From IMG/VR virus record IMGVR_UViG_3300048851_000105, positions 1-64,000 of that record: a DNA stretch of 64,000 bases; one strand, written 5' to 3'. Origin of the DNA: a virus. Position 1 is the first letter of the stretch. Each line of letters begins with the position of its first letter. The notes under the pieces were generated by a model. It saw only the letters and a program-made list of their open reading frames with translations, did no database searches and was not told the DNA's origin. Shown one piece after another: positions 6,101 through 62,665 of this stretch. The translations under genes were made by a program, and so were the position numbers.

Positions 6101-8168
6101 GTTCGACACCGACGACGGCAACCGCATCTACAAGTGGGACGGCGACTCGTGGGAGGTCGTCCCGCTCGGCACGAACGCCATCGCGGACCTCGCGATCACG
6201 AACTCCAAGATCGGCAACCTCGACGCAGGCAAGATCACCACGGGCTTCCTCGACGCTGGACGCATCCAGTCGGCGTCGATCTCGTCGCGCATGCTCGCTG
6301 TCGGAGATTTCAAGAATTACCTGGAGGGCTCCGACTTCGAGGGAGATGCCGCCTCGATTCCGTGGACGAACATCCCGGACGCCAACGCGCTCCTCTCGGT
6401 GAACGTCAAGCACAACGGTGCCAAGAGCGTCCAGTTGCTTCCCACGGGCCCCTACCAGGCTCCTCCGGTCACCACGGTGACCACCATCCAGCGCAACATG
6501 TTCACCAACCCAGAGGCGCAGAACGACACGGTTGGATGGGCGAGCGTTGCAGGCAGGTTGCTCACACGAGGAAACCTCGCTACGGTGGACCGCTTCCAGG
6601 GAGCCCCTACCGCGGTCTGGTTCTACCCCGGCCTGAACACCGGCTCGGCTACTCGACTTCGCACCGTGCCGTTCGTTGTGCCCGGCTCCGTCGTGTCGTT
6701 CTCCCTCGGTCTTCGGATCAACATCACCAAGGCACTCACGATCGCAGTGACGTTCATGACGGCCTCGGGAGCAGCGGACGCGGGGGCCACTCGCTACCTC
6801 GCACCCACCGTGACGCAGAGCCCGAACGTGTGGCGCGCGTGGAAGATGGAGAACCTCCAGGTTCCTCCGGACGCCAACCGCATGGTCATCGAGATTTTCA
6901 CCCCCTCGGGCGGAGGCTGGGACAGCGACAACCGCTACATCATCGCCACGGCCGTCATGCTCAACGAGGGTTCAGCCGTCCTGCCGTACTTCAACGGCAA
7001 CTCGGCGAGCACCACCGTCGACAATGGCACAACCACCACGACAACGACTCATGCGTGGACAGGTACGGCAGGCAACTCGTCCTCGACGAAGACGATCGTC
7101 ACCGAGACCATCGGAGAGGCCCCCGAGCAGCCCAACCGACTCTACGCAGCGAGCGTGGACATCCCGGTCCAGGTGGACCAGACGTTCGTCCTCACAGCGT
7201 GGATTCGAGGCGCGAACCAGTACAACGGCGACGCCTCCGGGGCCTACCTGGAGATCAGAGACGCCGAGACCTTCACCTCACTGGGTCGTGTTCTGATTGG
7301 CCGCGCCGCGGTGCCTGCCGACTTTGTCTGGACGAAGGTGTCGTGCACGGTCAAGGTTCCGGCCGGGACGAACTTCATCCGGCCGCACATCCGCGTGAAT
7401 CACACCCGAGGATTCCTCTACATCGACGACATCGCGTTCAAGAATGGCGCTGGTGTGCTCATCGAGGATGGCGCGATCACGGCCCCACTCATCGCCGCCA
7501 ACGCGATCACGGCAGACAGCATCGCCGCAGGCGCCGTCCAGACTGAGCAACTCGACGCCTATGCGATCACGTCGAAGCACACCATCACGGGCGCGCTCAT
7601 CCGCACGGCTGAGTCTGGCGCCCGCACGGAGATGAACGCCTCGGGTCTCCGGGTCGTCGGGTCGGACAACACCGACCTCGTGCGCCTCGGCTTCAACCAG
7701 GCCACGGGTATGTCGATCAAGGACCCGAACACGGGCCTGCTCACGCCGCTGGCCAACATGGCCTTCGGCACCTCGTTCTTCTTCCGCACGGCCGGACTGG
7801 CGATCCCCACCACCGCGGCGGAGAACACGTGGAGCGCGTACGTCAACGAGACCTTCGGCGGGCAGTACAACGCTCCGTCGTCGCGCGCTCTCGTCATCTA
7901 CACGGCTCTGGCCGCCAACCAGACGGTGACGCAGAACTTCAACATCGGCGGTACGCTCGACTTCATCCCCTCGTCGAACAACCCGTCGTACGTCCGCTTG
8001 AAGGCAGACATGTGGGTCACGTGGACTTCGGGCATGTACATGGGCGTCATCTCCACCGTCCCCGGCGAGACGTACACCGTGCGCAACTCGTACCGGTCCC
8101 AGCGGACGTTCTCCGGAACGGGCACCCCGAGCGTGATCGACCGCGGTTGTGTCGTCATCCCGATGTAG
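3180..8168 (+). CDS. Large minor tail / central fibre protein (Tal/gpJ-like with FN3 and CBM-like domains)
   Basis: About 1660 aa after Dit; FN3-like segments (APENLSAES...VVFTWD...YEV; PSKPTLTS...YEARLRAID); IADLAITNSKIGNLDAGKITTG host-specificity-type repeats. Confidence 0.85.
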   Translation: MSDDYMEVSVYGHETPTERMDYVPNALSPKFLEEIVGEGAGQFSLSLLDKKFLSQTSLLDYRNVVKLSCGGVVRSAFIIGNDTPDFIDQAENASKTTTVSGSGLKSWLEGATVFPEGGLKQSSPDNRVFSWASKRGAWFTASEWKAPVKVEQYHMQPDKTKPDLRYVYSPAEWPDAPQAWWVWSQLPTFSTVGGKRMGSTPPGNAYFRYEFTVAPGNEGDYSLFAAADNAFVAFIDSALAIDATTPAGMTHHRETVRYDFTLEAGPHVLAFRVTNFQSTSPNNPAALIAALFKAGDADAGVAASIVTVTGAAGWLVNGYPTSEPGWTIGEIWTTLLQEAKDRGIRFPNWVIPNFTADLDSNGVPWAERLPFSFNVGDTYLDVLHVMEDLAVESWVDPDTYALNIVQKRGKNKSVVTDTDDAVTLREGWNLTKASSQGEADLTNTLLMKTEDGWVVAEPSSTASKTKYGRLEGSINTSVSGVLSRKLADKVFQTKASPEVGTTYGLIPRPGAEPFKDFGIGDYVLAPNAKGADVERRVMSIAITGDIAGNPLYAVEFDTIFQTKEAEYDRMAKRASGSGLGAGFVSADGAGKGGSAPSTGTGTGYKPAAPRAPENLSAESTGFFTNSGAARSKVVFTWDATIADINGVGITTIDRYEVLGRAADTTAFQSLGVVSGAFTTLTVTNLASDIDWLFVIRASVDSTRVSEYSDPAVLHHTAAPAMLMPAPSKPTLTSKLGTVTVMWNGLLGTGVPPVQFGYVYAEYRVSPATAWTQEGAISGKGGIVVTNLAVGTSFEARLRAIDSLGRASDPSASTTIVVKGVDTSDLGQDFQDSLDQIEQNSSDAQTAAGEAATAAQEALEAAQEAAGNAGGVLYQEAVPTAEQRRFLWIRKSDKKAFVWDATLATPAWVESTDPRVITAATNAANALDAATRAENTANAAAGQAGQALTAANGKNRVWYLATPPAGTGHKIDDTWFDTDDGNRIYKWDGDSWEVVPLGTNAIADLAITNSKIGNLDAGKITTGFLDAGRIQSASISSRMLAVGDFKNYLEGSDFEGDAASIPWTNIPDANALLSVNVKHNGAKSVQLLPTGPYQAPPVTTVTTIQRNMFTNPEAQNDTVGWASVAGRLLTRGNLATVDRFQGAPTAVWFYPGLNTGSATRLRTVPFVVPGSVVSFSLGLRINITKALTIAVTFMTASGAADAGATRYLAPTVTQSPNVWRAWKMENLQVPPDANRMVIEIFTPSGGGWDSDNRYIIATAVMLNEGSAVLPYFNGNSASTTVDNGTTTTTTTHAWTGTAGNSSSTKTIVTETIGEAPEQPNRLYAASVDIPVQVDQTFVLTAWIRGANQYNGDASGAYLEIRDAETFTSLGRVLIGRAAVPADFVWTKVSCTVKVPAGTNFIRPHIRVNHTRGFLYIDDIAFKNGAGVLIEDGAITAPLIAANAITADSIAAGAVQTEQLDAYAITSKHTITGALIRTAESGARTEMNASGLRVVGSDNTDLVRLGFNQATGMSIKDPNTGLLTPLANMAFGTSFFFRTAGLAIPTTAAENTWSAYVNETFGGQYNAPSSRALVIYTALAANQTVTQNFNIGGTLDFIPSSNNPSYVRLKADMWVTWTSGMYMGVISTVPGETYTVRNSYRSQRTFSGTGTPSVIDRGCVVIPM

Positions 8169-15707: not shown

Positions 15708-16400
15708 ATGAATCCCATGCCGACTCCCCTGACACCGCGACAGCGGGAACTCGTCGCCTCGAACAAGGGGCTGGCTGAGAAAATCTCACACGACTACCTC
15801 CAGCGTGCTCCTGGACTGGAGATCGACGAGGTGGTCGCTGTCGCCTACCAGGGCCTCATCGACGCCGCGCTCCGATTCGATCCGTCCCGTGGCGTCCCCT
15901 TCGGCGGATTCGCTCGGCAGATCATCCACTTCGCCATCCAGATGTGGCAGCGAGACGAGGACTACCTCCAGCGCAACATCCGCACGGACTACAAGAAGAT
16001 GCTGGAGAGCGGCTACACCGAGCGCGGCGGCATTAGTCCCTCCCTCGTCGAGCGGACCGGACTCACGATGAAGCGCATGGTGACCGTGGTCCGGGCCGTC
16101 GCCGCGAAGCCCACGAGCAGCGAGCATCTCGTTGAGGCAGAGGCGGTGCTCGCCCACCCCGACGTCGATGTCGAATCTTCTGTCGTGGTCTCGGCCATCC
16201 AGGGCTCCGTGGCCACCGTCTACCAGAGCCTCCCCGGCGTACAGCAGATCATCGTCGCCATGGTCTACTTCCAGGGCCTCGAACTCCGCCAGGTGGCCGA
16301 GAATCTCGGCACCAGCGTCTCCTTCGTCCGACAGTCCCACAGCGAGGCGGTCTCTCTCCTTCACGAGGAGATGGTTCGACAGGCACGCATGCCGGATTGA
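15708..16400 (+). CDS. RNA polymerase sigma factor, FliA/WhiG/SigF-like
   Basis: Region 2 (VAYQGLIDAALRFDPSRGVPFGGFA) and region 4 (IVAMVYFQGLELRQVAENLGTSVSFVRQSH). Confidence 0.9.
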   Translation: MNPMPTPLTPRQRELVASNKGLAEKISHDYLQRAPGLEIDEVVAVAYQGLIDAALRFDPSRGVPFGGFARQIIHFAIQMWQRDEDYLQRNIRTDYKKMLESGYTERGGISPSLVERTGLTMKRMVTVVRAVAAKPTSSEHLVEAEAVLAHPDVDVESSVVVSAIQGSVATVYQSLPGVQQIIVAMVYFQGLELRQVAENLGTSVSFVRQSHSEAVSLLHEEMVRQARMPD

Positions 16401-16417
16401 GGCGTACCACAGGCATG
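16383..16417 (+). promoter_or_regulatory. Phage-sigma leaderless promoter copy 2 (GCAC-N16-CGTACCACAGGC-ATG)
   Basis: Exact consensus; ATG is the start of the next gene. Confidence 0.75.
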
Positions 16418-24178: not shown

Positions 24179-24208
24179 GGGGCTCCCCGTCTTCGGATGG
24201 GGAGCCCC
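24179..24208 (+). terminator. 13-bp hairpin with cUUCGg tetraloop in leader of second sigma gene
   Basis: GGGGCTCCCCGTC-TTCG-GATGGGGAGCCCC; no long U tract, so role uncertain. Confidence 0.55.
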
Positions 24209-24238
24209 GACTTACATCCCCTCCAGGAAGGTCAAGAC

Positions 24239-24943
24239 ATGCGCACCACCACTCCCCCCGTTCAACTGAACGTCGAGGCTCCCGGCACTCTGAAGGCCGA
24301 GATCGACGTCCGGCAGTCGAGGATCACCGACCACTCCGTCCCGGAGTCGTTCACGGAACTCTACGATCGCTACTACGGCTACGTGGTCCGGCTCGTGAAG
24401 CGTCGCGGCATCGCCCACAGTGATGTGGAAGACGTGGCCCAGACGATCTTCGCCCACTTCTATCGTCGCGGATCGCTCGAATACTTCGACGCCGAGCGTG
24501 TGGATGTGCACGACGGCAGGGAGTACACCGCCAAGTTCACGACCTTCCTCTCTGGATTCGTCGTCACGTACCTCCAGCACCACCTGACAATGCAGGAACG
24601 CAATGAGAATCGCATGGTTCGCAGCGGCGGCCTCGACAGCCTGATGGAAGACCCCACGGAGGAGAACTCCTGGGTCAACACCCGCGGACCTCGCTACGAC
24701 GACGACCACAGTCGGGTCGAGTACGTCGAGTTCGTCGAGAACCTCCACGTCCGGCTCTCCAGCGTCAAGCCGCGCTCAGCACGCACCGTCTGCGACCTGC
24801 CCGTGTTCTTCGAGGCCATCCGGAAGCAGATCGAGGTCAACGGCAAGTACGACGCCGACGAACTCGCCGCCCAGTTCGGAGTCGCGAGGCGCACGATCCA
24901 TAACTGGCTGGGCCTGCTCCGGGCCGAGTTGAACGGTCTCTGA
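24239..24943 (+). CDS. ECF-like sigma factor
   Basis: FTELYDRYYGYVVRLV...DVEDVAQTIF...KFTTFL region 2; C-terminal HTH ADELAAQFGVARRTIHNWL. Confidence 0.75.
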   Translation: MRTTTPPVQLNVEAPGTLKAEIDVRQSRITDHSVPESFTELYDRYYGYVVRLVKRRGIAHSDVEDVAQTIFAHFYRRGSLEYFDAERVDVHDGREYTAKFTTFLSGFVVTYLQHHLTMQERNENRMVRSGGLDSLMEDPTEENSWVNTRGPRYDDDHSRVEYVEFVENLHVRLSSVKPRSARTVCDLPVFFEAIRKQIEVNGKYDADELAAQFGVARRTIHNWLGLLRAELNGL

Positions 24944-33154: not shown

Positions 33155-33753
33155 TGCGCGCGCTCGTCGGGGACCTGGCCGCCACCTTCTCTGCGTTCCA
33201 GATCAGGGATGGCAGCCAGGTCCTCGTCGAGTGGGACACCCGGGGGGAGACTCCCTTCGGCACGGCCAAGAAGATTCGGCGGATGGCCGACGAGTACGCG
33301 GTCGACCTGATCTTGCTGGAGACCGTCCCGCAGCGGGTCAAGTTCCATATCGACCGCATCTTTCGGCTCCAGGGCATCATCTTCGCCTACCTGCACCCGT
33401 ACTTCGAGGGCGACCGAATCTTCTTGGTGTTCCCGCAGACGTGGCAGAAGCATTACCCAGGCGTAGGGAGCATTCCCAAGGGCGTGGACGTCCCGAAGGC
33501 CCATCGAGACGCGTGGAGGGCTGAGGAGGCCCGGAAGCACGCACTGGCTCGCGGTTACGCGCCGCCCGACCTCGTCGAGCAGTACATCGCGAGCCTCCCA
33601 GAGGGGGCGAGGGTGCTGAAGAAGCACACTGACCCTCTCGCCAAGAGCATGACGGACTACGTCGATGCCTTCCTCATCGGGGACTGGCTCTACTCAATCG
33701 GCACCGTTGACGAACTGAGGCGTACCACAGGCGTACAGCCTCCCATGATCTAG
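33154..33753 (+). CDS. ruvC: RuvC-like Holliday junction resolvase
   Basis: LVGDLA, ILLETV, FPQTWQK, DYVDAFLIG. Confidence 0.65.
   Translation: MRALVGDLAATFSAFQIRDGSQVLVEWDTRGETPFGTAKKIRRMADEYAVDLILLETVPQRVKFHIDRIFRLQGIIFAYLHPYFEGDRIFLVFPQTWQKHYPGVGSIPKGVDVPKAHRDAWRAEEARKHALARGYAPPDLVEQYIASLPEGARVLKKHTDPLAKSMTDYVDAFLIGDWLYSIGTVDELRRTTGVQPPMI
33701..33732 (+). promoter_or_regulatory. Phage-sigma promoter copy 4 (GCAC-N16-CGTACCACAGGC), leadered
   Basis: Exact consensus inside the end of ruvC; upstream of the recA operon. Confidence 0.7.
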
Positions 33754-33767
33754 AGAGAAGATTCCTC

Positions 33768-34073
33768 ATGTCCGACGAGAAGAAGGTCCGCATCGTTCCG
33801 CCCGAGCAGGTCGTGCCCGACTACTTCCAGCCGTACTCGCAGGTGGAGCACGGCTACCGCAACCCCAACGGCGGTGAAATCTGGGGACCTGCCTACGTCG
33901 GCAACACGGTTGTCTCCCTCGCGGACGCGGCCGGACGCGGCCGGTTCCTGGATCATCGGCGCCGCGAGGTGGAGCGTCTCGGCGTGCTCTGGGACGCCAA
34001 GAAGATGGCTCCGGTGTTCATCCAGCGGACGCGAACGGTGACGTTCGACGAGCCGACCGAGGTGGAGGAGTGA
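33768..34073 (+). CDS. Hypothetical protein
   Basis: AGAAGATTCCTCATG start context. Confidence 0.6.
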   Translation: MSDEKKVRIVPPEQVVPDYFQPYSQVEHGYRNPNGGEIWGPAYVGNTVVSLADAAGRGRFLDHRRREVERLGVLWDAKKMAPVFIQRTRTVTFDEPTEVEE

Positions 34074-36660: not shown

Positions 36661-36744
36661 GGCCCACAGACGCCAGGGCCGCGTGCTTCTTCCCCGTCGC
36701 ACGCGGCCCTGGTCCATACCCACCAGAGTCCCCAGGAGGACCGT

Positions 36745-37467: not shown

Positions 37468-37497
37468 TTGACACCGTGACCCCTGTAACGGTATCGT
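37468..37497 (+). promoter_or_regulatory. SigA-type promoter TTGACA-N18-TATCGT with operator CGTGAC-CCCT-GTAACG in the spacer
   Basis: Consensus -35; operator at 37475-37490. Confidence 0.7.
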
Positions 37498-37529
37498 CGG
37501 GAGTGGTCAAGACAGAGAGGATTCCTCGT

Positions 37530-37736
37530 ATGGACTCCAACAAATCATCGCGTGCCAGTCAGGCGCGCATCACGTATCTTGCGCTCGCCATCGCCGCTCT
37601 GCTCGGCGCCGCCCTCCATGTCGAGAGCGGAGACGCCGGTCGGGTGATCCTGCTCATGGTGCTCGCAGCCGGGTTCGTCGCGCTCGCCGTTCGAGCGGGT
37701 CAGGTCGCACGTCGGGAGGACGACCGTGGCGAGTAG
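37530..37736 (+). CDS. Two-TM membrane protein
   Basis: Two hydrophobic helices. Confidence 0.55.
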   Translation: MDSNKSSRASQARITYLALAIAALLGAALHVESGDAGRVILLMVLAAGFVALAVRAGQVARREDDRGE

Positions 37737-37896
37737 CGTCCTTTCCCAGATCGCTGAGGACTTCGCCGAGCAGAAGGTGATCACCTCCAACGTGCGAGGC
37801 ACCGATCCCGATCTCCTCCGCAGCCTGTGGAAGGCCAACGCCCTGGAGGTACTCGCTTTCGCAGTGCCACGCCTCGGCATCGAGGAGGGATCGTGA
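37726..37896 (+). CDS. Hypothetical protein (56 aa)
   Basis: GGAGGA SD, GTG start; below ORF-track cutoff. Confidence 0.5.
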   Translation: MASSVLSQIAEDFAEQKVITSNVRGTDPDLLRSLWKANALEVLAFAVPRLGIEEGS

Positions 37897-38159
37897 AGAG
37901 TCCCATCTCGTCGAAGACGACGAAGATTCTCCTCGACGGGCTCCGTCTCCAGGAGTGCTCCGTGCGGCCCACCACCAACGGCTGGCACATCCTCTTCCCG
38001 AACGGCGCGGGCACGTCGCTGCACCGCACCCTGTCCGACTGGCGGGCACTGAAGAACTTCCGCTCGATCGTGCGACAGCAGGGTCTCGTGTGGCCGCTCG
38101 ACAAAGAAGAGTTCAGCCAACTTGCACAGAAGTCCCGCAGGGGCGTACAACAGGCATGA
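37893..38159 (+). CDS. Orphan HicA-like (dsRBD-fold) protein
   Basis: VRPTTNGWHILFPNG...HRTLSDWRALKNFRSIVRQQG; no HicB neighbour. Confidence 0.55.
   Translation: MKSPISSKTTKILLDGLRLQECSVRPTTNGWHILFPNGAGTSLHRTLSDWRALKNFRSIVRQQGLVWPLDKEEFSQLAQKSRRGVQQA
38124..38158 (+). promoter_or_regulatory. Phage-sigma promoter copy 5 (GCAC-N16-CGTACAACAGGC-ATG)
   Basis: Consensus match; the ATG opens only 19 codons and a structured RNA follows. Confidence 0.7.
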
Positions 38160-38378
38160 CGTCGCAGTGCTTCCCCCCTGTCACACGACGTCAGGAGGCC
38201 CCTCACTCCCCCTGAGGGGCCTCCACCCACAGACTCGGGACGTCACCCTGGAGGGGGACGTCCCGAGGGCAGAGAGCGGAGACCTGGGGGCTTTCGCAAT
38301 GACCTGCCGGGGGCCGGAGAGGTTCGCTGTAATCGCATCGGGTGCGAGCAGCGACAGGGACTCTACGGCCCCCAACTC
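38156..38378 (+). ncRNA. Putative 6C-like small RNA, about 220 nt
   Basis: Consecutive stems of 8, 12 and 11 bp, first two with C-rich loops, then a GGGGCCG/CGGCCCC-closed domain. Confidence 0.6.
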
Positions 38379-38379
38379 C

Positions 38380-38393
38380 CATTTCTCGAAATG
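38380..38393. promoter_or_regulatory. Palindrome CATTTC-TC-GAAATG
   Basis: 2 nt upstream of -35 TGGACA. Confidence 0.6.
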
Positions 38394-38395
38394 AC

Positions 38396-38459
38396 TGGAC
38401 ACGACACCGTGACAGGTGTAACGTAGTTCATGTCAGAGAGTCCGCTTCTGGAAGGAGCA
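38396..38459 (+). promoter_or_regulatory. SigA-type promoter TGGACA-N17-TAACGT with operator and conserved CCGCTTCTGGAAGGAGCA leader
   Basis: Operator 38408-38423; leader 38442-38459. Confidence 0.7.
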
Positions 38460-38463
38460 CCCC

Positions 38464-38640
38464 GTGCCGATCATCAAACAGCGATCCCGCAATCGCTTCG
38501 CCGCCCCTCTTCGAGAGAAGACGGTGGACGAACTCCTGTGGGCCATCCGCAACGGCCGCGGTGACGCAGCCGAGGCCGCTCAGGTCCTGCGGGCTCTGGG
38601 CTGGACGGACGAGCAGATCGCCGTGCAGGTGCAGCGATGA
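38464..38640 (+). CDS. Hypothetical protein (58 aa)
   Basis: AAGGAG SD, GTG start. Confidence 0.55.
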   Translation: MPIIKQRSRNRFAAPLREKTVDELLWAIRNGRGDAAEAAQVLRALGWTDEQIAVQVQR

Positions 38641-50268: not shown

Positions 50269-50297
50269 ATGGGGAGTTCCCTAACAGGGCAGATGTG

Positions 50298-50313
50298 TGT
50301 TACAGTAGACACG
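50298..50313 (+). promoter_or_regulatory. Extended -10 TGtTACAGT with operator TGTTAC-AGTA-GACACG
   Basis: Same core as 51416 and 53816. Confidence 0.7.
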
Positions 50314-50610
50314 TACCAACGGCCAGCCGGTCGAGCGGAGAGTCGTCCATGGACAGGGCGGTGAGATCACCAAAATCCGGAGACCGTTGGGAACGTCCAG
50401 AGGAAGGGCCCTAGGCCGCTGAGCGTCCCGTGACGGGCTCTTCCTCGCCCCCTTACCCAGAGGCCTCAGGGCTGGAGAACTCGCGGACTTGATTGGCCGC
50501 TAATGACGTCTCCGTCCTGAGGCCTCTGCTTTGCCCTCTGAGGGAACTCTCCATTGTGGGGACTTCCCTCAGAGGGCACCCTTATGTGGGTATCCCTGCT
50601 AGGGTAAGCG
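50314..50610 (+). ncRNA. Highly paired RNA or long structured leader, about 300 nt
   Basis: Stems of 12 bp (50400-50411/50435-50446), 13 bp (50458-50470/50516-50528) and 15 bp (50532-50546/50564-50578). Confidence 0.6.
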
Positions 50611-50611
50611 C

Positions 50612-50926
50612 ATGCAACGAGAGATCAGCCGCATCGACGGCCGTAGACGAATCAAGGTTCCCGACCTGGCGCCGGGCACGCGCGTACGCACAGCAGAGGC
50701 CAATGGCCGCATGGCCGTCGTGCCTGACGAGGCCGGGCCCCTCCGTGCCGACTCCCAGAGCCGCATCACCATCCCCATCGGCAGCAGTGTGGGCATCCCC
50801 GGAGATCACCTCACTGTCGAGCAGCGCCCCAACGGGTTCGTCCTTCAGCGCGCGATCGTGGTCACGTTCCAGGACATCGGCCCGGAACTCTGGGCTACCC
50901 TCACAGGGCAGAGCGAGCAGGAGTGA
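50612..50926 (+). CDS. Tandem AbrB/MraZ-like DNA-binding protein 2
   Basis: RIDGRRRIKVP...MAVVP and RADSQSRITIP...FVLQR. Confidence 0.7.
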   Translation: MQREISRIDGRRRIKVPDLAPGTRVRTAEANGRMAVVPDEAGPLRADSQSRITIPIGSSVGIPGDHLTVEQRPNGFVLQRAIVVTFQDIGPELWATLTGQSEQE

Positions 50927-50929
50927 CCC

Positions 50930-51105
50930 CCTACCCTGTTAGGGTAAACACGTGCACCTCAGGCAGGCGCGCAGGATCGTGACCGGCCTGTCTGAGAACA
51001 GATGCTCACTGCGACAGATAGTGGGGCGGCGTAAGCCCTGAGGTGCACCTCTGTCGTCGGCGCCAATGGTCGATTCTCGAATTCGGCGAGCGCCACGACA
51101 GGCCT
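50930..51105 (-). ncRNA. Structured RNA of about 175 nt downstream of the tRNA-like RNA
   Basis: 12-bp stem 50952-50963/51037-51048 enclosing a branched domain; 7+5 bp stem 51051-51063/51090-51101; terminal hairpin 50932-50946; strand inferred from the promoter. Confidence 0.5.
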
Positions 51106-51118
51106 GGGAGGGGGAGCA

Positions 51119-51222
51119 TGCCGGGCGGTGGGATTTGAACCCACGGAGCGCTACGCGAGCGCTCACCGTATCCCGGCGCGATCGTCCGGGGGCTCACCTT
51201 AGGCCGCTCAGACACGCCCGGC
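51119..51222 (-). tRNA. Class II (Ser/Leu-type) tRNA-like RNA with non-canonical anticodon arm
   Basis: Acceptor GCCGGGCG/CGCCCGGC, D loop GAGCGGCCTAA, 7-bp variable stem, T arm GTGGG-TTCAAAT-CCCAC; about 29-nt anticodon region; no CCA. Confidence 0.7.
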
Positions 51223-51346
51223 ATGCGACCCCGAGTGTAGCAGGGGGGGGGGAGGGTTCCCCGCGCAGGGTGGGCCTGTCAGACCCCTCATCGCTGGTTC
51301 ACCGTCCGGACTCGGGGCCGGAATCCCTGCTAGGACCTCCTCTCTA

Positions 51347-51378
51347 CGTTACTATTGTAACACGTCACTGGTGTAACA
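51347..51378 (-). promoter_or_regulatory. Leftward extended -10 promoter (TGtTACAAT) under two tandem operators
   Basis: CGTTAC-TATT-GTAACA and CGTCAC-TGGT-GTAACA; the only leftward promoter seen. Confidence 0.7.
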
Positions 51379-51395
51379 CCTAATCCTGAGCAGAG

Positions 51396-51431
51396 TAGAG
51401 GTTTCCTCTGTAACCTGTTACAGTAGACACG
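51396..51431 (+). promoter_or_regulatory. Rightward early-type promoter/operator cassette
   Basis: TAGAGG-N17-TACAGT; near-identical to 53796-53831. Confidence 0.75.
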
Positions 51432-51451
51432 TACCGAGGAAAGGACACCCC

Positions 51452-52327
51452 ATGGCCTACTGGAACGGCGACGAGCCGGAGCCCGTGAAACCCCACCCCG
51501 TCTACCAAGGCGGCCCGTGCCCTGAGTGCGGCGCCCCTCGCGGCCACCAGAACCCCTGGTGCTACTCGTACGATCTGACCTGAGAGGACAGACCAATGAA
51601 GCGTTTCGCCGTCATCAATACCGAGACGGGCAATCTGAGCCCGCAGTCGTTCGACAGCCAGGCTGAAGCCGAGGCCGTCCGCGACGAGTGGAATGCCGCC
51701 TACAAGCCGCAGTTCCAGACCAACGAGGTCGTCGAGTTCGTCATCCTCCCCCGCAAGGCGGCCTGACCATGGCAATCACACTGGAGATTCTCCGAGCCGC
51801 CATCATCAAGGAGGACATCTGCCCCGTGGAGGAGTTCGACGATCTCATCGCCGACATCCGCACGCAGGCCCACGAAGGCGGCATCGACGCCGCACATGCC
51901 GGGTTCTGAACGCGCCGCGGCCGACCTCCCCCCCCCGATCGACGAGAGAGAAGATTCCTCATGACCATCCACAACGATCCCTACGCCGACCTCCCCGAGG
52001 GTATCCCCACGGGGGACTACCTCGATCGCAGCGGAGGCGAGCCCCTCATCGTCGGCGGCCCGTACGACGCAGAGATGGCCGAGCGAGCCGCGATCCAGGC
52101 GGATGCTGAGAACGAGCGCGATGGGTACCGTGACTGACACCGTCCTGTTCTTCATGGTCGAAGGACCGTTCGACGGCGAGACGCGCATGCTCCCCAAGGA
52201 CGTCTCGCACCTTCAAGTGACGCGCATGACGCAGGAGGGGCACCTCACCCTGTCCGGGCTGTATCTCCCCGCAGTGCGGATGCCGTCCGGAGATCGGGCC
52301 ATGCTGTGGCTAGCGGACGAGGATTAG
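51452..52327 (+). other. Five small genes (51452-51583, 51596-51766, 51769-51909, 51961-52137, 52121-52327)
   Basis: SD-led short ORFs after the 51396 promoter. Confidence 0.55.
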
Positions 52328-52361
52328 AGAAATCCTCCAGTCACGTGTTACACTAGACACG
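52325..52361 (+). promoter_or_regulatory. Early-type promoter/operator cassette (TGtTACACT)
   Basis: Operator TGTTAC-ACTA-GACACG at 52346-52361. Confidence 0.7.
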
Positions 52362-52381
52362 TAAGGAAGAGGAGGCCCCAA

Positions 52382-53798
52382 ATGGTCCAGGTAGCAGAAG
52401 CCCCAGTCGTCAAGATGGTCCACCACTGCCGCGAGTGCGGCAAGGAACTGGCCTACGTGCCCTTCTACGGCCCCGAATACGGTCACATGATGCCTCACGA
52501 CCTGCCCGCCGAGTTCGTCCACGCAGACGGCCCCCAAGGCCACCCCGCTGAGCCCCGCGCCTATTGCCGCGAATGCCAGATCGAGGGTGTCGGCGCCTGC
52601 CAGCACTGGGGAGCAGGACCGTGGCACTGACCGGAGGCATGCGGGTCCACTACAGCGACCGCGCCGACACGGTCACCCGCTACGGGATGACCTCCATGGC
52701 TCAGGTGATCCTGGCCATCCACGACGACGAATCTTCTGTCGTCGGCTACAGCCTCGAAGGAAGGGACTACTGATGGACACGTTCAAGCCCGGCGAGAAGG
52801 TCCGCATCGGCAAGGGCATCCGCGAGTGGGAGGTCGTCAACGACTTTCGCGATCGGGATATCCCCCTCGTGGTTCTCCGCACCCACGCTGTGCGCCGCAT
52901 GACGCGCACCCTGCTCGGGGACAGGCAGATCGCCCGTCTGGGGAGGGTCCAGTGACCATGAGCATCACCGAGGCGCCTGTCCTCCTGACGATCGCCAGCG
53001 GCGGGCACTGGATTCCTGTCCCTCGATCGACTCTCCTCGCAGCCGTGCGTACTGCCAACGCGATCGACACGCGCCCCTCGACCTTCGACCGCGCGCCCCG
53101 CTTCTGGGTGCCCGTCAAGCGCTACCGTGTCGCCCAGGAGGCCGGGAAGGTGCATGTCACGAGCGAGGGCAAGACGCTCTACACGAGCGACACCCATGCG
53201 GAAGCGTGGGCATGGCTGAGCGCAGGAGGAGTGCTGTGAGCGACCCCACACCCACCCCCCTGGAAATCATCCAGAAGTCACTGGACCGGGCGCCGTCAAA
53301 CGCGCGTACCGCACGGCGCATCCTGATCGACCTGGAGCGCGCGGGCTACGTCGTCCGCGAGCAGGCGCCTACGCCCCTGAATGAGCGCATCGTCCTCATC
53401 GGCCGGGACATGCGCGAGTGGTTCACCGCGAAGTCCGACGCGATCCTGGACCGCATCCAGACGAGCACGACTCAGGACGTCATGCTCTACCACGACGCAG
53501 TTGGCGTTCTCGTGGCCGCACGCCAACTGGTGGAACTGACGGCTCAGGGCACCCTGGAGGGGGAACTCACCCCCGAGCAGCAGCGTGCCCTCTCAGGGGA
53601 GCGCGAGGTGACCGGGTGAGCAGGCGGCGCCGAACCCCCGCAGAGATGGCCGTCGTCCACCTGGGGCGCGCTCTGAGTAGCCTCATCCGCAGCGGGCTAG
53701 GCGAATCGTCTCCCCAGTACACGAAGGCCATTCGACTGGTCGCTGAAGCGAGCGATGCTCTCCTGGACGCGATCGAGAGCGGCGAGCCTGAGGACTAG
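52382..53798 (+). other. Six small genes (52382-52630, about 52639-52773, 52773-52955, 52952-53239, 53236-53619, 53616-53798)
   Basis: Translationally coupled short ORFs. Confidence 0.55.
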
Positions 53799-53859
53799 AG
53801 GTTTCCTCTGTCACGTGTTACAGTAGACACGTACCGATTCTCCGCTTCTGGAAGGAGCA
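53796..53859 (+). promoter_or_regulatory. Early-type promoter/operator cassette plus CCGCTTCTGGAAGGAGCA leader
   Basis: Operator 53816-53831; leader 53842-53859. Confidence 0.75.
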
Positions 53860-53863
53860 CCCC

Positions 53864-55404
53864 GTGGTCACCACGATGGACAAGTTCATGGACTACCGCG
53901 TCTCGCCGTACAGCGACAAGCCGAAGCAGGACGTCGAGGTTCTGGACGAGCCGTTCCACTGCCGGGCCGATGGGGAAGTCATCACCCTGATCCAGAGCAG
54001 CAACTACGACCCCTCCAAGTGGGTCCACGAAGCCGGGGTCGACTGCACGAGCCCCTGGCCCCGTCCCAAGTGCGCCTACTGCGGCACCGACGAGGTCGGA
54101 GTCGTCGTCGATCGGCAGCACGCCTACCACGACGCCCGTGAGTGCAGCCGCTGCGGTGGCGTCACTGGCTTCGCGATCGGAGACTGAGCCATGGCCACCG
54201 ACTTCAGCGTCAAGACGCAGGCAGCCGCCTTCCAGGACGGTTACCAGCGTGCACTGGGCGACATCGCAGCAGCCTTCGAGAGCGGCGGCTACCATGCCGC
54301 TCTCGAATGGATTGCCAACAACCACACCCAGAAGGGGGCCTGAGATGGCCGCACACCACGACCACGAGCGATGGATGCTCCAGGAGAGCGCCCAGGGAGG
54401 CCTCTACTGCGCCCCCTGCGGGCAGCACATCCCCTTCCGCACCCCCGAGCAGGTTCGGCGCCTGGAGACGCTCAGAGCCCACGAGGAGGGCCTCTCCGAG
54501 GACATCGCCACCTACCGCGCCGAGGGACGGGACCGCAGCGAACTCATCGCCCTTCGGAATGAGGTCCGCGCCGAGATGCGCGACATCGAGAACAACACGG
54601 CCGTCCAGGAAGGGACCCCCGCATGACCGGGACACAGCGCCGCATCGAGACCCTTCGCGCGCATCAGGTCCTCGACGACTACGCCACCGAGGACGAGCGT
54701 CAGAGTGACCTTGTCGAACTGCGTGCTCTGGAGCGCCAGCAGGCGATCGTGATGGACGGCCAGTCCGTCCCGCTCCCCGAGGCCGCCGAGCGCATCATGT
54801 ACTGGGCCATCAACGAGGGCCCGCATCGACAGAGCACGTTCGAGGAGTGGCTCGAAGCCGAGCGCGCGAGGGCGTGGGAAGCGGGCTACCAGCAAGGGCA
54901 TCGACTCGGCCGCAACCTCAACCCCCACGCACCGAAGAAGGTCCGCTGATGAACGTCTGTTCCGAGTGTCACGTCCTCGACGGTCACAAGTTCTCCTGCT
55001 CCCAGCGCCCTGGCAAGGGGGCCCGCATCCCTGTGCAGCGCGTCAAGTGCCCGACTCAGGGACCACACGCCCCTCATGCGTGGCGCATCTCTCCTGAGGT
55101 CTCGCAGCACTGCGTCGGTGTGCCCCCTCAGGCGGGCCTCCTGACAGACGACGAGAAGATGGTCGCCGATCTCCTCCTGACGACCCAGCATGAGATCGAG
55201 CGGAAGCAGTCCGAGCGCATTACGTCCCTCCGGCCCAACGATCCGGGCTTCGATCACGAGGCATGGGAGCGCGAGCACCCCTTCCCTGGGTCGGTCACTG
55301 ATGCACAGGCCCGTGCGGTAGCAGCGTTGCTCCAGAGGGAGCGCGCGAAGGCATGGGAGGGCGGCCGTACGACCGACATCCCCAACCCCTACAAGGAGGC
55401 TTGA
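53864..55404 (+). other. Five small genes (53864-54187, about 54191-54343, 54345-54626, 54623-54949, 54949-55404)
   Basis: Coupled ORFs; the last two carry ERA(R/K)AWE.G...NP(Y/H) motifs. Confidence 0.55.
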
Positions 55405-55407
55405 CCC

Positions 55408-55821
55408 GTGACGAACACCGAGAAGATTCGGGCCGCCTACATCCGGTCGTTCGCTAGTCACGCGGTTCTGGAGACCGCAGCAGCGAAGCAGTTCGACGAG
55501 TGGCTTCAGCGCGAGCGTGCGAGGGCATGGGAGGAGGGCAAGGACGAGGCTCTGGGCGCCGGAGATCGGGATGCTCTGATCAATCCCTACGACCCTCCCA
55601 GGGAAGCCTCTCCTGTGGACCTCGACCTGCCTGAGGGTGGGCTCGCTGTCGGCACAGTCGTCTCGTACTACCGTGATCCCTCCATCCGCGGGAAGGTGAG
55701 TCTCGCGCAGGTTTCCGGTGACCACTGGGCCTATGCAGTGGCCTGGGACTACGCCCCCGAGCGCTCCACAGGCTGGTACACCCGCTCCATGCTTCGACCC
55801 GAGACCGAACAGAAGGACTGA
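55408..55821 (+). CDS. Paralogue-family protein (FDEWL..ERARAWEEG...NPY) with SH3-like C-terminus
   Basis: Motif shared with neighbours. Confidence 0.65.
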   Translation: MTNTEKIRAAYIRSFASHAVLETAAAKQFDEWLQRERARAWEEGKDEALGAGDRDALINPYDPPREASPVDLDLPEGGLAVGTVVSYYRDPSIRGKVSLAQVSGDHWAYAVAWDYAPERSTGWYTRSMLRPETEQKD

Positions 55822-55823
55822 CC

Positions 55824-56132
55824 ATGGCACGCATCGAGCCCGACTACACCCCCACCACTGAGGAGGTGAAGGACGCCTATGGACTGGGCGGCGACGGCGC
55901 TGACTTCAAGGCCGAATACTGGGCCCGCAGAGAGGCGTTCGATCGCTGGCTGGCTGCGCACGACGCCGAGAAGGACGCGGAGATCGCGCGCCTGTCGCAG
56001 CGGCCGACCGTCGAAGAGGTGGCGCGGTCGGTGGGTTGGCAACATCCCCGAGTCCCCCATGACGAACTGAGGTCGATCGTGTCTGCCGTGCTCGCCCTGT
56101 TCCCCACCCCCAAGGAGACCCCCCGTGGCTGA
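55824..56132 (+). CDS. Paralogue-family protein (PTTEEV...FDRWLAAHDAE)
   Basis: DNA-level similarity to the next gene. Confidence 0.7.
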   Translation: MARIEPDYTPTTEEVKDAYGLGGDGADFKAEYWARREAFDRWLAAHDAEKDAEIARLSQRPTVEEVARSVGWQHPRVPHDELRSIVSAVLALFPTPKETPRG

Positions 56133-56655
56133 GCACACCCCCACCACCGAAGAGGTCCGGCAGCGGTACGCCTACGACGAGTGGACAGACCCACAGGAGA
56201 GCGACTACGCAGCGTTCGACCGCTGGCTGGCCGCCCACGACGCCGAGGTACTGCGCGACGGAGGCTTGGTCCGTGTCGAGACCGCCGAGAAGTACCGCCA
56301 GCGGTGGGAGGATGCCCAGGCTGAGGTGCGTCGCCTGTCCCAGCGGCCCGCCATCGAAGAAGTCGTGCGAAGGCTTTGGACCGAGAACGCGAGCCTGACC
56401 AACATGCAGGCACGGAACCTCGTCGAGGACGTGCTCGCCCTGTTCCCCGCACCCAGGGAGACCGCCGATGAGCGCACTCGTTGCCTGTCCGTTCATCGGG
56501 GTGTGCAGTGTCAGGGGTACTGGGAGCACCACCTGGACGAGACCACCCACTTCCATCAGGGTGACGAGGAGTACGGCGGCCCCAGCCACAACCACCACTG
56601 GGAGGGCCCGTCCTGGCGCTCTCTCCGCACCCGCTTGGAGGAGACCCATGCCTGA
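56125..56655 (+). CDS. Paralogue-family protein (PTTEEV...FDRWLAAHDAE) with C-terminal Cys/His motif
   Basis: Tandem duplicate of the 55824 gene plus added module. Confidence 0.7.
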   Translation: MAEHTPTTEEVRQRYAYDEWTDPQESDYAAFDRWLAAHDAEVLRDGGLVRVETAEKYRQRWEDAQAEVRRLSQRPAIEEVVRRLWTENASLTNMQARNLVEDVLALFPAPRETADERTRCLSVHRGVQCQGYWEHHLDETTHFHQGDEEYGGPSHNHHWEGPSWRSLRTRLEETHA

Positions 56656-57064
56656 GCACGTCCCTACGAGGGAAGAGATCGAGACCGCGTACGCCGGGGG
56701 GTGGAGCGAGGACTCGATCCCTGGCAAGAACGCCCGTGAGGAGTTCGCCGCCTGGCTGGCCGATCACGACGCTCAGGTCTTGGACATCGCTCGCCGCCCC
56801 CGCATGATCGCCGCCGAGAGAGAGGCCAACGCCGCCGATGAGAAGACCGTGATCCGGGACGTCAACGGCGACGTCTTCGAGAAGGTCTCAGGCCGAGGCT
56901 GGGAGATGACAGGAGAGTCCGGACGCTGGGGGCCGACCTGGATCAAGTACCCCGCCACTGTGCTCTGGGCGCCGCTCTACGGCCGCATGGAGGTGGCACC
57001 CGTCGATCTCCAGCAGCACCCCACACAACCCCGTCCTGAGGGCTACCAGGGAAGCCCCGCGTGA
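56648..57064 (+). CDS. Paralogue-family protein (PTREEI...FAAWLADHDAQ)
   Basis: Same N-terminal module, different C-terminus. Confidence 0.7.
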   Translation: MPEHVPTREEIETAYAGGWSEDSIPGKNAREEFAAWLADHDAQVLDIARRPRMIAAEREANAADEKTVIRDVNGDVFEKVSGRGWEMTGESGRWGPTWIKYPATVLWAPLYGRMEVAPVDLQQHPTQPRPEGYQGSPA

Positions 57065-57315
57065 CCGAGCCCCTGAGCCCCCTCGACAGGGAGGTGAGCG
57101 ATGGCACGCGCTACCTCCTCTGGCCGGACGCCGAGATCGCCTGGCGCTGTCATTGGTGCAGGCTGGTCTACTCCGACCCGAAGGCGCACTTCCGCTCCTA
57201 TCCCCAGTGCCGATCATGACGTGTCCATCGTGCGGGGGTTCTGTGGCCCCTGAGAGCCTCTACAACGGCTCAGGGACACCTGTGGCCACCGTCGACAGAT
57301 GCGTGCGCTGTGGGC

Positions 57316-57350
57316 GCATGGAAGCCCGCTGAGGGCGTATCACAGGCATG
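57316..57350 (+). promoter_or_regulatory. Phage-sigma leaderless promoter copy 10 (GCAT-N16-CGTATCACAGGC-ATG)
   Basis: Consensus match. Confidence 0.75.
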
Positions 57351-57545
57351 ACGAGCAAGAAGACGACGGAAACGGCCTACCTTCTGGGCATGAAGCCGAA
57401 CTCCCGCACGGGGTTCTATCACGTTCACTCCGCCTCGTACGAGTGCGGGATGGCCTATCGAGGACACGACGAACTCTGGTGGCCGTGCTCACGCCTGGTG
57501 AATCACGAGGGGCCGTGCGGGTACGAGGACAACACGGCGTACTGA
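57348..57545 (+). CDS. Small Cys/His protein
   Basis: CSRLVNHEGPC motif; start set by motif. Confidence 0.6.
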   Translation: MTSKKTTETAYLLGMKPNSRTGFYHVHSASYECGMAYRGHDELWWPCSRLVNHEGPCGYEDNTAY

Positions 57546-57550
57546 GTTTC

Positions 57551-57583
57551 TCGATTTCTCTGTAACGTGTTACAGTAGTAACG
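57551..57583 (+). promoter_or_regulatory. Early-type promoter/operator cassette (TGtTACAGT)
   Basis: Operator TGTTAC-AGTA-GTAACG at 57568-57583. Confidence 0.7.
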
Positions 57584-57597
57584 TATCCAGAGAGAGG

Positions 57598-61314: not shown

Positions 61315-61367
61315 GAGAAATCCTCTGTATCGGTTACACTGGTAACGTACCGCTTCTGGAAGGAGCA
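61313..61367 (+). promoter_or_regulatory. Early-type promoter/operator cassette plus CCGCTTCTGGAAGGAGCA leader
   Basis: Operator GGTTAC-ACTG-GTAACG 61332-61347; leader 61350-61367. Confidence 0.7.
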
Positions 61368-61371
61368 TCTC

Positions 61372-62665
61372 ATGGCCGCCAAGCCTCGCATCTTCGCTAG
61401 CACTCCACACGGCAAGGTCGTGAATCCCATTCTCCGCGAACTGCGCGAGAAGAAGCGGGACGTCTACGATCTCCTGATGGACCTGGATTCCATGTGGGCC
61501 GACCAGTTCAGCGATGCCCAGGTCTGGCACGCACGCGAGGTTCTCTCACTCTTGGGCTCGCTCCGAACCGTCAAGGGGGCGTCGTGAACTACGCGATCGG
61601 CGTCTGTGCCCTGATCCTGGCCTACGTGCTCGCAGCGTGCGCTCTGGTCTCCGTGGTCGGCGCCGCCTTCCGCGGCACATTCCCGGCCGAGGAGGTCGCG
61701 TCCGTGGTTCCCCTGGCCGTCATGGCCGCTCTCGTCTGGGGTGCAGGACGCGCCCTGACACACACGAAGGAGTCGGCCGAGTGAGCAAGCAGATCGAGTC
61801 CATCCGCATCTGGACGGACGCGGACTGGCATGTGCACATTCGCCTGCGGTCCGATATGCGGAACACTCCGCAGAAGTTGCAGCGCTTTGCGCGCAGCCTC
61901 ATCGTCGATCATGTCGCCCGAGCCGAGCAGCAACTCGGAGAGCGTCTGGTTGTCGCAGCCAGGCGCGTCACCCAGAGCATCTATGTCCCCATCACCCCGG
62001 CGATCGTCCACGAGGACGGCACTGTGGAGTTCATCGAAGGAGCCCGCCCATGACCACCTCACAGCCCGTAGCAGCCCGTCTGACGCCCAAACACGGCTGG
62101 AACATCGACCAGCACCAGGACGGCACGTTCACGTGCTCACGAGGCGATGTGTCGCTTCGCGTGACGGTCATTCACGACTCCGTGCACTTCCAGGACGCTC
62201 GCCCCGGCACGGTGAACGCAGACCAGTACACCTACCTCGCCGAGCAGATCGGGGAGATGCAGAACCAGCAGATGATCACCGCCGCCATGCAGGAGAAGAT
62301 TTGATGGTCGAATCAACTGAGCGTCGTCGCGAGCGTGCACGACTGAAGGCGCGGCTCTTTCCTCACATCTACGGCACAGACCCCGTCCGCCGAGAGGCCG
62401 CCACCAAGGCCATTCAGAACTTCGACGCTGAGACGCGGGAGAAGGGTCTGTGAATCCGGAGACGATCCCCGAGATGCAGGTGCACGGCTGGCTCATCGAT
62501 CACGCAGGCGCCGACACGTTCCGAGCCACCAAAGGCGACGTGACCGTCAGCATCGAGTACGAGGACCCGACCACGTTCGTGCACACCCCGGACGTCATGC
62601 CTGCGGATGAGCGAGCGACTGTGGAGGACGCCATCGTCAACACCTGGCCAATCGAGTCATGGTGA
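61372..62665 (+). other. Six small genes (61372-61587, 61584-61784 membrane, 61781-62053, 62050-62304, 62304-62453, 62450-62665)
   Basis: Coupled ORFs; 62050 and 62450 share a (W).ID....(G/D)TF...(R/K)GDV(S/T) motif. Confidence 0.55.

Follow-up and report, generated by a model that had tools for sequence, protein, structure and literature searches.

A phage promoter copy opens onto a strongly structured non-coding RNA region with 6C-like architecture in the genome of a probable actinophage

In a phage genome of high G+C content, a copy of a phage-specific promoter is followed directly by two adjacent hairpins with C-rich loops and by two further structures. We regard this stretch as a promoter-fed, strongly structured non-coding RNA region. 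Judged from its sequence, its architecture resembles that of 6C, but it is not demonstrably a 6C family member. An initial annotation had interpreted the same stretch as a phage-encoded small RNA of the 6C kind that would serve a takeover of host translation, and our analysis supports that interpretation in part. The reading to which we lean, tentatively and without going so far as to call it probable, is that a short, stable RNA is transcribed from the phage promoter and that its C-rich loops would pair with G-rich ribosome-binding sites in the way that those of 6C do.

The window (the whole stretch of DNA that was analyzed) comes from an IMG/VR virus record of 125,778 bp that carries direct terminal repeats, and covers its first 64 kb. 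Its G+C content is 64-66%, and nearly all genes in the window appear to lie on the + strand. The host of the phage is probably an actinobacterium, as the nearest named relative is Microbacterium phage Magritte, with 55% amino-acid identity in the SbcC-like gene. The features discussed below are listed in Table 1. The 88-aa gene that precedes the hairpins has one homologue, which is 69% identical and covers only 55% of the query. On the other side, the host-type promoter in front of the 58-aa gene (38464-38640) is associated with an operator and lies at about 38408. The leader found there, CCGCTTCTGGAAGGAGCACCCCGTG, has three copies before start codons (38442-38473, 53842-53873 and 61350-61381), and a family of host-type promoters with operator, GTTACAGTAGACACGTA, has five copies at 50292-57585. 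An AT-rich motif, AGAAGATTCCTCA, is located directly 5' of an ATG start at 33750-33770 and again at positions 74289-74312 of the genome (L012, 1290-1313), and may be a translation signal other than the Shine-Dalgarno (SD) sequence. Runs of G5 and C5 are about 3.5- to 4-fold rarer in the whole genome than composition predicts (94 observed versus 392 expected, and 146 versus 516, respectively); six such runs are clustered within 38172-38373.

Table 1. Features in and around the hairpin region, in coordinates of the window
Feature	Position	Strand	Description
Phage ECF-type sigma factor gene	15708-16400	+	Sigma70_r2 33.1 bits, Sigma70_r4_2 27.2 bits
Comparator hairpin	36673-36712	+	14-bp perfect stem, C-rich loop UUCUUCCCCGUC, 13 nt after a stop codon; terminator-like; z -6.4
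RNase T-like exonuclease gene	36745		Neighbor of the hairpin region
88-aa gene upstream of the hairpins	37893-38159	+	Last codons carry the promoter; TGA overlaps ATG (ATGA)
ECF-type phage-specific promoter copy	38124-38158	+	TGCAC-N16-CGTA...CAGGCATG; predicted transcript start, A at 38156
Possible 19-codon frame	38156-38215	+	MTSQCFPPVTRRQEAPHSP, then stop; opened by the promoter's ATG; two C runs encode Pro-Pro and Pro-stop
Hairpin 1	38157-38193	+	8-bp outer stem 38157-38164/38186-38193 (UGACGUCG/CGACGUCA) and short inner helix; loop holds CUUCCCCCC
Hairpin 2	38194-38224	+	Stem 38194-38205/38213-38224, 12 perfect pairs; loop CUCCCCC; no U tail
Hairpin 3	38234-38267	+	Stem 38234-38244/38257-38267, 11 perfect pairs, extended by an apical CCC/GGG helix
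Long interrupted hairpin	38309-38373	+	Closed by GGGGGCCG/CGGCCCCC
Host-type promoter region, repeated leader and downstream gene	38400-38640	+	Leader CCGCTTCTGGAAGGAGCACCCCGTG; 58-aa gene at 38464-38640
SbcC-like ATPase gene	40661		Neighbor of the hairpin region

The presence of a promoter copy directly before the hairpins, reported in the initial annotation, was confirmed. When the motif GGCAC-N16-GGCGTAYCACAGGCATG was searched, 10 matches were found in the window (0.4 expected) and 16 in the whole genome (none for the reversed control), while Magritte, G001 and G002 yielded no match. The spacing of GGCAC...CGTA has the look of an ECF-type promoter, and the best copy of the motif (16379-16417) is located directly 3' of the phage gene for an ECF-type sigma factor. 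A second, weaker sigma-like gene is found at 24197-24943 (r2, 23 bits). An ORF of 58-349 aa begins at the terminal ATG in 13 copies; these are leaderless genes. When the 13 ORF-leading copies were used to train a weight matrix, the copy that precedes the hairpins scored 38.7 bits, which falls within the range of the training copies (37.3-46.8); the best unrelated site scored 27. It is the sole high-scoring copy among 14 without an ORF of that size behind it. Because the +1 position is fixed by the leaderless copies, the predicted start can be placed one base before hairpin 1. The elements are arranged in the order ECF-type promoter, hairpins, host-type promoter with operator and gene 38464, and this order is wrong for an ECF-type promoter meant to drive 38464. 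Another promoter copy, at 33719, which lacks the ATG, was considered as the start of a second small RNA and rejected: a short leader and a normal gene follow, and the fold has a z of 0.2.

Examination of coding potential agreed with the earlier statement that the region holds no credible ORF. A frame of 90 codons (38122-38394) was rejected as a gene, as its GC3 is 0.70-0.80 versus 0.85-0.95 in the flanking genes, and a search among 5.8 billion proteins returned neither a homologue nor a self-hit; the neighboring gene returned its own entry. We take 38160-38463 as non-coding on the basis of its sequence, with a qualification that the initial annotation did not mention: the possible 19-codon frame that begins at 38156.

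The existence of this small frame admits an explanation of a different kind. The RNA would start with AUG, the 19 codons would be translated, and a ribosome moving or stalled on them would melt hairpins 1 and 2 and set the read-through to downstream genes. The other promoter copies are leaderless genes, and hence RNAs with a 5'-terminal AUG are evidently translated in the host. The Pro-Pro and Pro-stop codons of the frame fall in the two loops, its stop codon is part of the 3' arm of hairpin 2, and the ATG at +1, kept here, is absent from a copy that drives a non-coding RNA in a relative (G127, see below). An attenuator of this sort seems improbable to us, however: the UG of the AUG is buried in the 8-bp stem, overlap with the stop codon TGA of the 88-aa gene dictates the ATG as well, and runs of C encode proline in any frame.

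The stems and loops described in the initial annotation were all found at the positions given there, and folding of the hairpin region is far beyond chance. The 251 nt between 38150 and 38400 fold with -131.6 kcal/mol (z -5.2). Folding is strong in the 77-nt 6C-like module (38156-38232; -40.4 kcal/mol, z -7.8), in hairpin 3 (-29.0 kcal/mol, z -4.9) and in the long hairpin at 38309-38373 (-41.7 kcal/mol, z -4.5), and unremarkable at 38268-38310 (-15.1 kcal/mol, z -0.8). As the stems are perfect palindromes, the minus strand folds almost equally well (z -4.3). The assignment of the structures to one strand therefore rests on the promoter and on the general orientation of the genes.

The same perfect Watson-Crick pairing on both strands would also suit an element that acts as DNA, either a cluster of protein-binding palindromes or a replication-related site, with a coincidental resemblance to 6C. 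The sequence GACGTC occurs four times, and the genes around the hairpin region concern DNA metabolism. Yet the loops are asymmetric, with the C-rich side on the transcribed strand, a promoter stands directly in front of the hairpins, and the region shows no shift in composition. We consider a DNA-level element very improbable.

The relatedness of the region to known RNA families was examined using Rfam. At gathering thresholds, no family was detected in the whole window. Under permissive settings, 6C (RF01066) was the sole notable match: it lies on the + strand at 38158-38230 and covers model positions 1-75 of 75. The likeness to 6C that had been claimed thus has in its favor a full-length match to a single family, but the score of 32 bits stays below the gathering score of 47, and true 6C RNAs score 37-92 bits. 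The E value of the match is 0.031 when 801 nt are searched with all families, and 0.0012 when the whole genome is searched with the 6C family alone.

For calibration, 121 genomes of Actinomycetes (roughly 480 Mb) were searched with RF01066; the unpublished genomes G025, G030 and G037 are counted in these tallies and were left out of the 6C alignment. The best match per genome varied continuously from 92 down to about 37 bits, with 69 of the 121 genomes above threshold. Secondary matches of at least 32 bits were only about 10 in roughly 480 Mb, a number that represents a lower bound of the background rate as this search used stricter filters. A covariance model built from an alignment of 64 true 6C RNAs, named R1, scored the phage element at 35.0 bits (E 0.0016 in 128 kb). 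On relatives of the phage, R1 gave 22 bits or less, and the 6C model gave 17 bits or less on Magritte, G001, G002, G003 and G004.

Comparison with 6C (known as B11 in mycobacteria) reveals a common architecture. Both consist of two adjacent GC-rich hairpins with C-rich loops that span about 73 nt, and a single unpaired base precedes hairpin 1. In both cases, hairpin 2 has a GGCCCC/GGGGCC core and a YUCCCCC loop. A common action may be expected by analogy, namely pairing of the loops with G-rich ribosome-binding sites. There are also differences. In the 64 aligned RNAs, both loops of true 6C contain C6-C8 and hairpin 2 (GRCCCCCGC/GCGGGGGYC) hardly varies, while the phage element has C6 in loop 1 and C5 in loop 2. 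The conserved 6C stem is absent from hairpin 2 of the phage (GGAGGCCCCUCA/UGAGGGGCCUCC), where only the core is common and the remaining pairs, including the inner ones, differ in both arms of the stem. The stem of hairpin 1 differs as well, its loop is larger and partly paired, and its fit to the 6C hairpin 1 is poor: the model alignments contain 3-4 non-canonical pairs. No linker separates the two phage hairpins, and about 150 nt of further structure follow at the 3' side. The genomic context differs too: true 6C is an actinobacterial chromosomal gene with conserved synteny near Ms1 and a promoter for the housekeeping sigma factor (PMC6582537, PMC5014011), and the phage element is found outside such chromosomal synteny, in a 125.8-kb phage genome and behind a phage ECF-type promoter.

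Similar hairpins were then sought in other viruses. The pattern of the canonical 6C hairpin 2, to which hairpin 2 of the phage does not conform, matched 68 IMG/VR contigs; 12 of them reached 34-49 bits with R1, and none passed the Rfam threshold. On these contigs and their parent genomes, RF01066 gave scores of 44.4 (L141), 36.6, 33.1, 29.2 and 28.3 bits. Most such matches are single long GGCCCCC/GGGGGCC hairpins with C-rich loops, located after stop codons or between convergent genes, and by their sequence and position they look like C-loop hairpins placed as terminators. The most 6C-like viral element in the survey is the one of L141, a 15-kb contig, in which three consecutive C-loop hairpins are found right after a gene (7400-7510, minus strand); its 44.4 bits compare with a threshold of 47. 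A 45-kb contig, L147, carries a two-hairpin element at 2051-2119 that scores 48.9 bits with R1. Its hairpin 2 is identical to that of the phage element in the outer nine pairs (GGAGGCCCC/GGGGCCUCC) and in the CUCCCCC loop motif.

Because viral contigs score 28-44 bits with terminator-like hairpins, a sub-threshold 6C score in a GC-rich phage is a mark of a ‘C-loop hairpin’ and not of a ‘6C homologue’. Hence, the description of the region as 6C-like is sound with regard to architecture and full-length match, and loses weight on two counts, the score below threshold and the similar scores obtained from hairpins of the terminator kind.

These observations bring in the possibility that the hairpins form a cluster of terminators or insulators. 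They would keep transcription of the upstream operon at 37476-38159 from reaching the host-type promoter with its operator, the C-rich loops would be a local style of terminators devoid of a U tail, and the ECF-type promoter would be either leaky, providing a long structured leader for 38464 onwards, or of little consequence. Common traits of such U-tail-less (I-shaped) terminators in actinobacteria and actinophages are a long perfect GC stem, a C-rich loop, the lack of a U tract and location at the end of an operon. The phage region agrees with this placement, as the stop codon of the 88-aa gene marks the start of hairpin 1 and the stem of hairpin 2 is perfect along its 12 pairs. A hairpin of the same kind is found at 36673 in this phage, right after another stop codon, and others in the IMG/VR contigs L148, L164, L167, L168 and L104; the hairpins of other phage contigs that score with the 6C model are likewise placed like terminators. 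The idea that C-rich stem-loops are alternative terminators is quoted by Mai et al. As a side observation, the 9-mer CCCACAGAC that precedes the hairpin at 36673-36712 also follows hairpin 2, at 38226.

What a terminator cluster leaves unexplained is a full-strength promoter immediately upstream, with its +1 at the foot of hairpin 1, and the need for four consecutive structures. U-tail-less terminators differ in this respect from the phage region, where two tandem C-loop hairpins are placed directly behind a start site and two more structures follow. Furthermore, the other strong intergenic hairpins of the phage, including those that resemble terminators, have mostly loops of the UUCG type. 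C-rich loops are restricted to the hairpin at 36673, to hairpins 1 and 2 and to one hairpin inside a gene, which has a 14-bp stem and is located at genome position 74051. Two adjacent C-rich loops are therefore not the default of this phage. On balance, we view a terminator cluster as the foremost alternative, although a rather unlikely one.

A relative with a genome of 135 kb, G127, has the promoter family and the SbcC-like gene in common with the phage. It harbors, at a position comparable to that of the phage hairpins, just one C-loop hairpin about 2.4 kb upstream of the SbcC-like gene; no promoter stands in front of this hairpin, which comes after a stop codon and is followed by a host-type promoter. 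The leaderless promoter family of G127 (L169-L180) has the sequence GNGTATMACGGNCATG and a different upstream box. One copy without ATG, L180, precedes a non-coding, tRNA-like stretch, and the promoter family therefore drives RNA genes. Among the tRNA-like pieces, the T arm and 3' acceptor end come first and the 5' acceptor and D arm come after them, and the whole may be a permuted or split tRNA; ARAGORN called no tRNA in this stretch.

Searches for closer relatives of the hairpin region were negative. BLAST of the region against GenBank phages gave no match, exact copies of hairpin 2 were absent from IMG/VR, and neither a loop-anchored pattern nor the downstream protein had a match in JGI metagenomes. 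In the reverse direction, two true 6C RNAs had no BLAST match among 50,697 GenBank phage records. When flanking and nearby proteins were used as queries for syntenic relatives, only distant kin were retrieved, with 44-55% identity in the SbcC-like gene, and none of the small flanking genes is conserved in them.

The reading that we tentatively prefer, a short RNA acting through its C-rich loops, can be outlined as follows. The phage ECF-type sigma factor would recognize the promoter copy at 38124-38158, and we infer that this promoter fires. Transcription would proceed from about 38156 straight into hairpins 1 and 2 and would end either at hairpin 2, which is likely to be the terminator of the short RNA, or at a next hairpin. 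A stable RNA of about 70-220 nt would result, and its two C-rich loops (CUUCCCCCC and CUCCCCC) would be exposed. By analogy with 6C/B11, they would base-pair with G-rich segments in the ribosome-binding regions of certain mRNAs, from the host or from the phage, and thereby cause repression. The same hairpins would also stop transcription that arrives from upstream genes. In 6C/B11, either C-rich loop pairs with G-rich ribosome-binding sites and represses translation without a chaperone, and overexpression arrests growth (PMC6486639, PMC10470900); the background offered in the initial annotation, pairing with G-rich sites and growth inhibition upon overexpression, is correct according to the same papers.

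Candidate targets were sought in silico within the phage. Only a handful of G5 runs are found just upstream of phage start codons. The best complement of loop 1 in the phage genome covers the SD sequence and the start of the gene at 71426, with a predicted duplex of -29.9 kcal/mol at 71406-71435. This site is not an outlier, as three others lie near -29.9 kcal/mol. The SD and GTG start region of this 151-154-aa gene (GGGGGUGGAAGCAGUG; L162, 607-640; genome 71406-71439) may be considered a candidate target.

A more ambitious proposal was made in the initial annotation, namely that SD sites are blocked globally while leaderless phage mRNAs are spared, resulting in a takeover of host translation. 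This proposal is purely conjectural and, as stated, unlikely, because most phage genes use SD sites. In a variant, the phage RNA would be a mimic of host 6C that floods the cell with C-rich loops. It would repress the targets of host 6C (G-rich ribosome-binding sites, for instance that of dnaB) and arrest host replication and division in the middle of the infection, and the leaderless lead genes of the phage would escape. We find this scenario improbable.

Trans-acting small RNAs encoded by phages and prophages are known in enterobacteria, DicF being an example. These RNAs depend on Hfq and belong to Gram-negative hosts. RNAs of the DicF type and the RNA proposed here would have in common that a mobile element supplies a short base-pairing RNA able to repress mRNAs of the host and to block growth or division; in sequence and structure, however, they are unrelated. 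Our literature searches retrieved no phage-borne 6C-like RNA and no example of a trans-acting small RNA in an actinophage, and trans-acting small RNAs from phages of Actinobacteria are essentially undescribed.

The recurrence of C-loop hairpins that score 28-44 bits in GC-rich phage contigs is a warning against calling sub-threshold 6C matches homologues. At the same time, the survey hints at a possible regulatory potential of the C-loop terminator hairpins of phages themselves. If the RNA is made and acts through its loops, the phage would have either copied or convergently imitated a host regulator that stops growth when overexpressed, and would provide a clean system to study chaperone-independent pairing between C-rich loops and runs of G.
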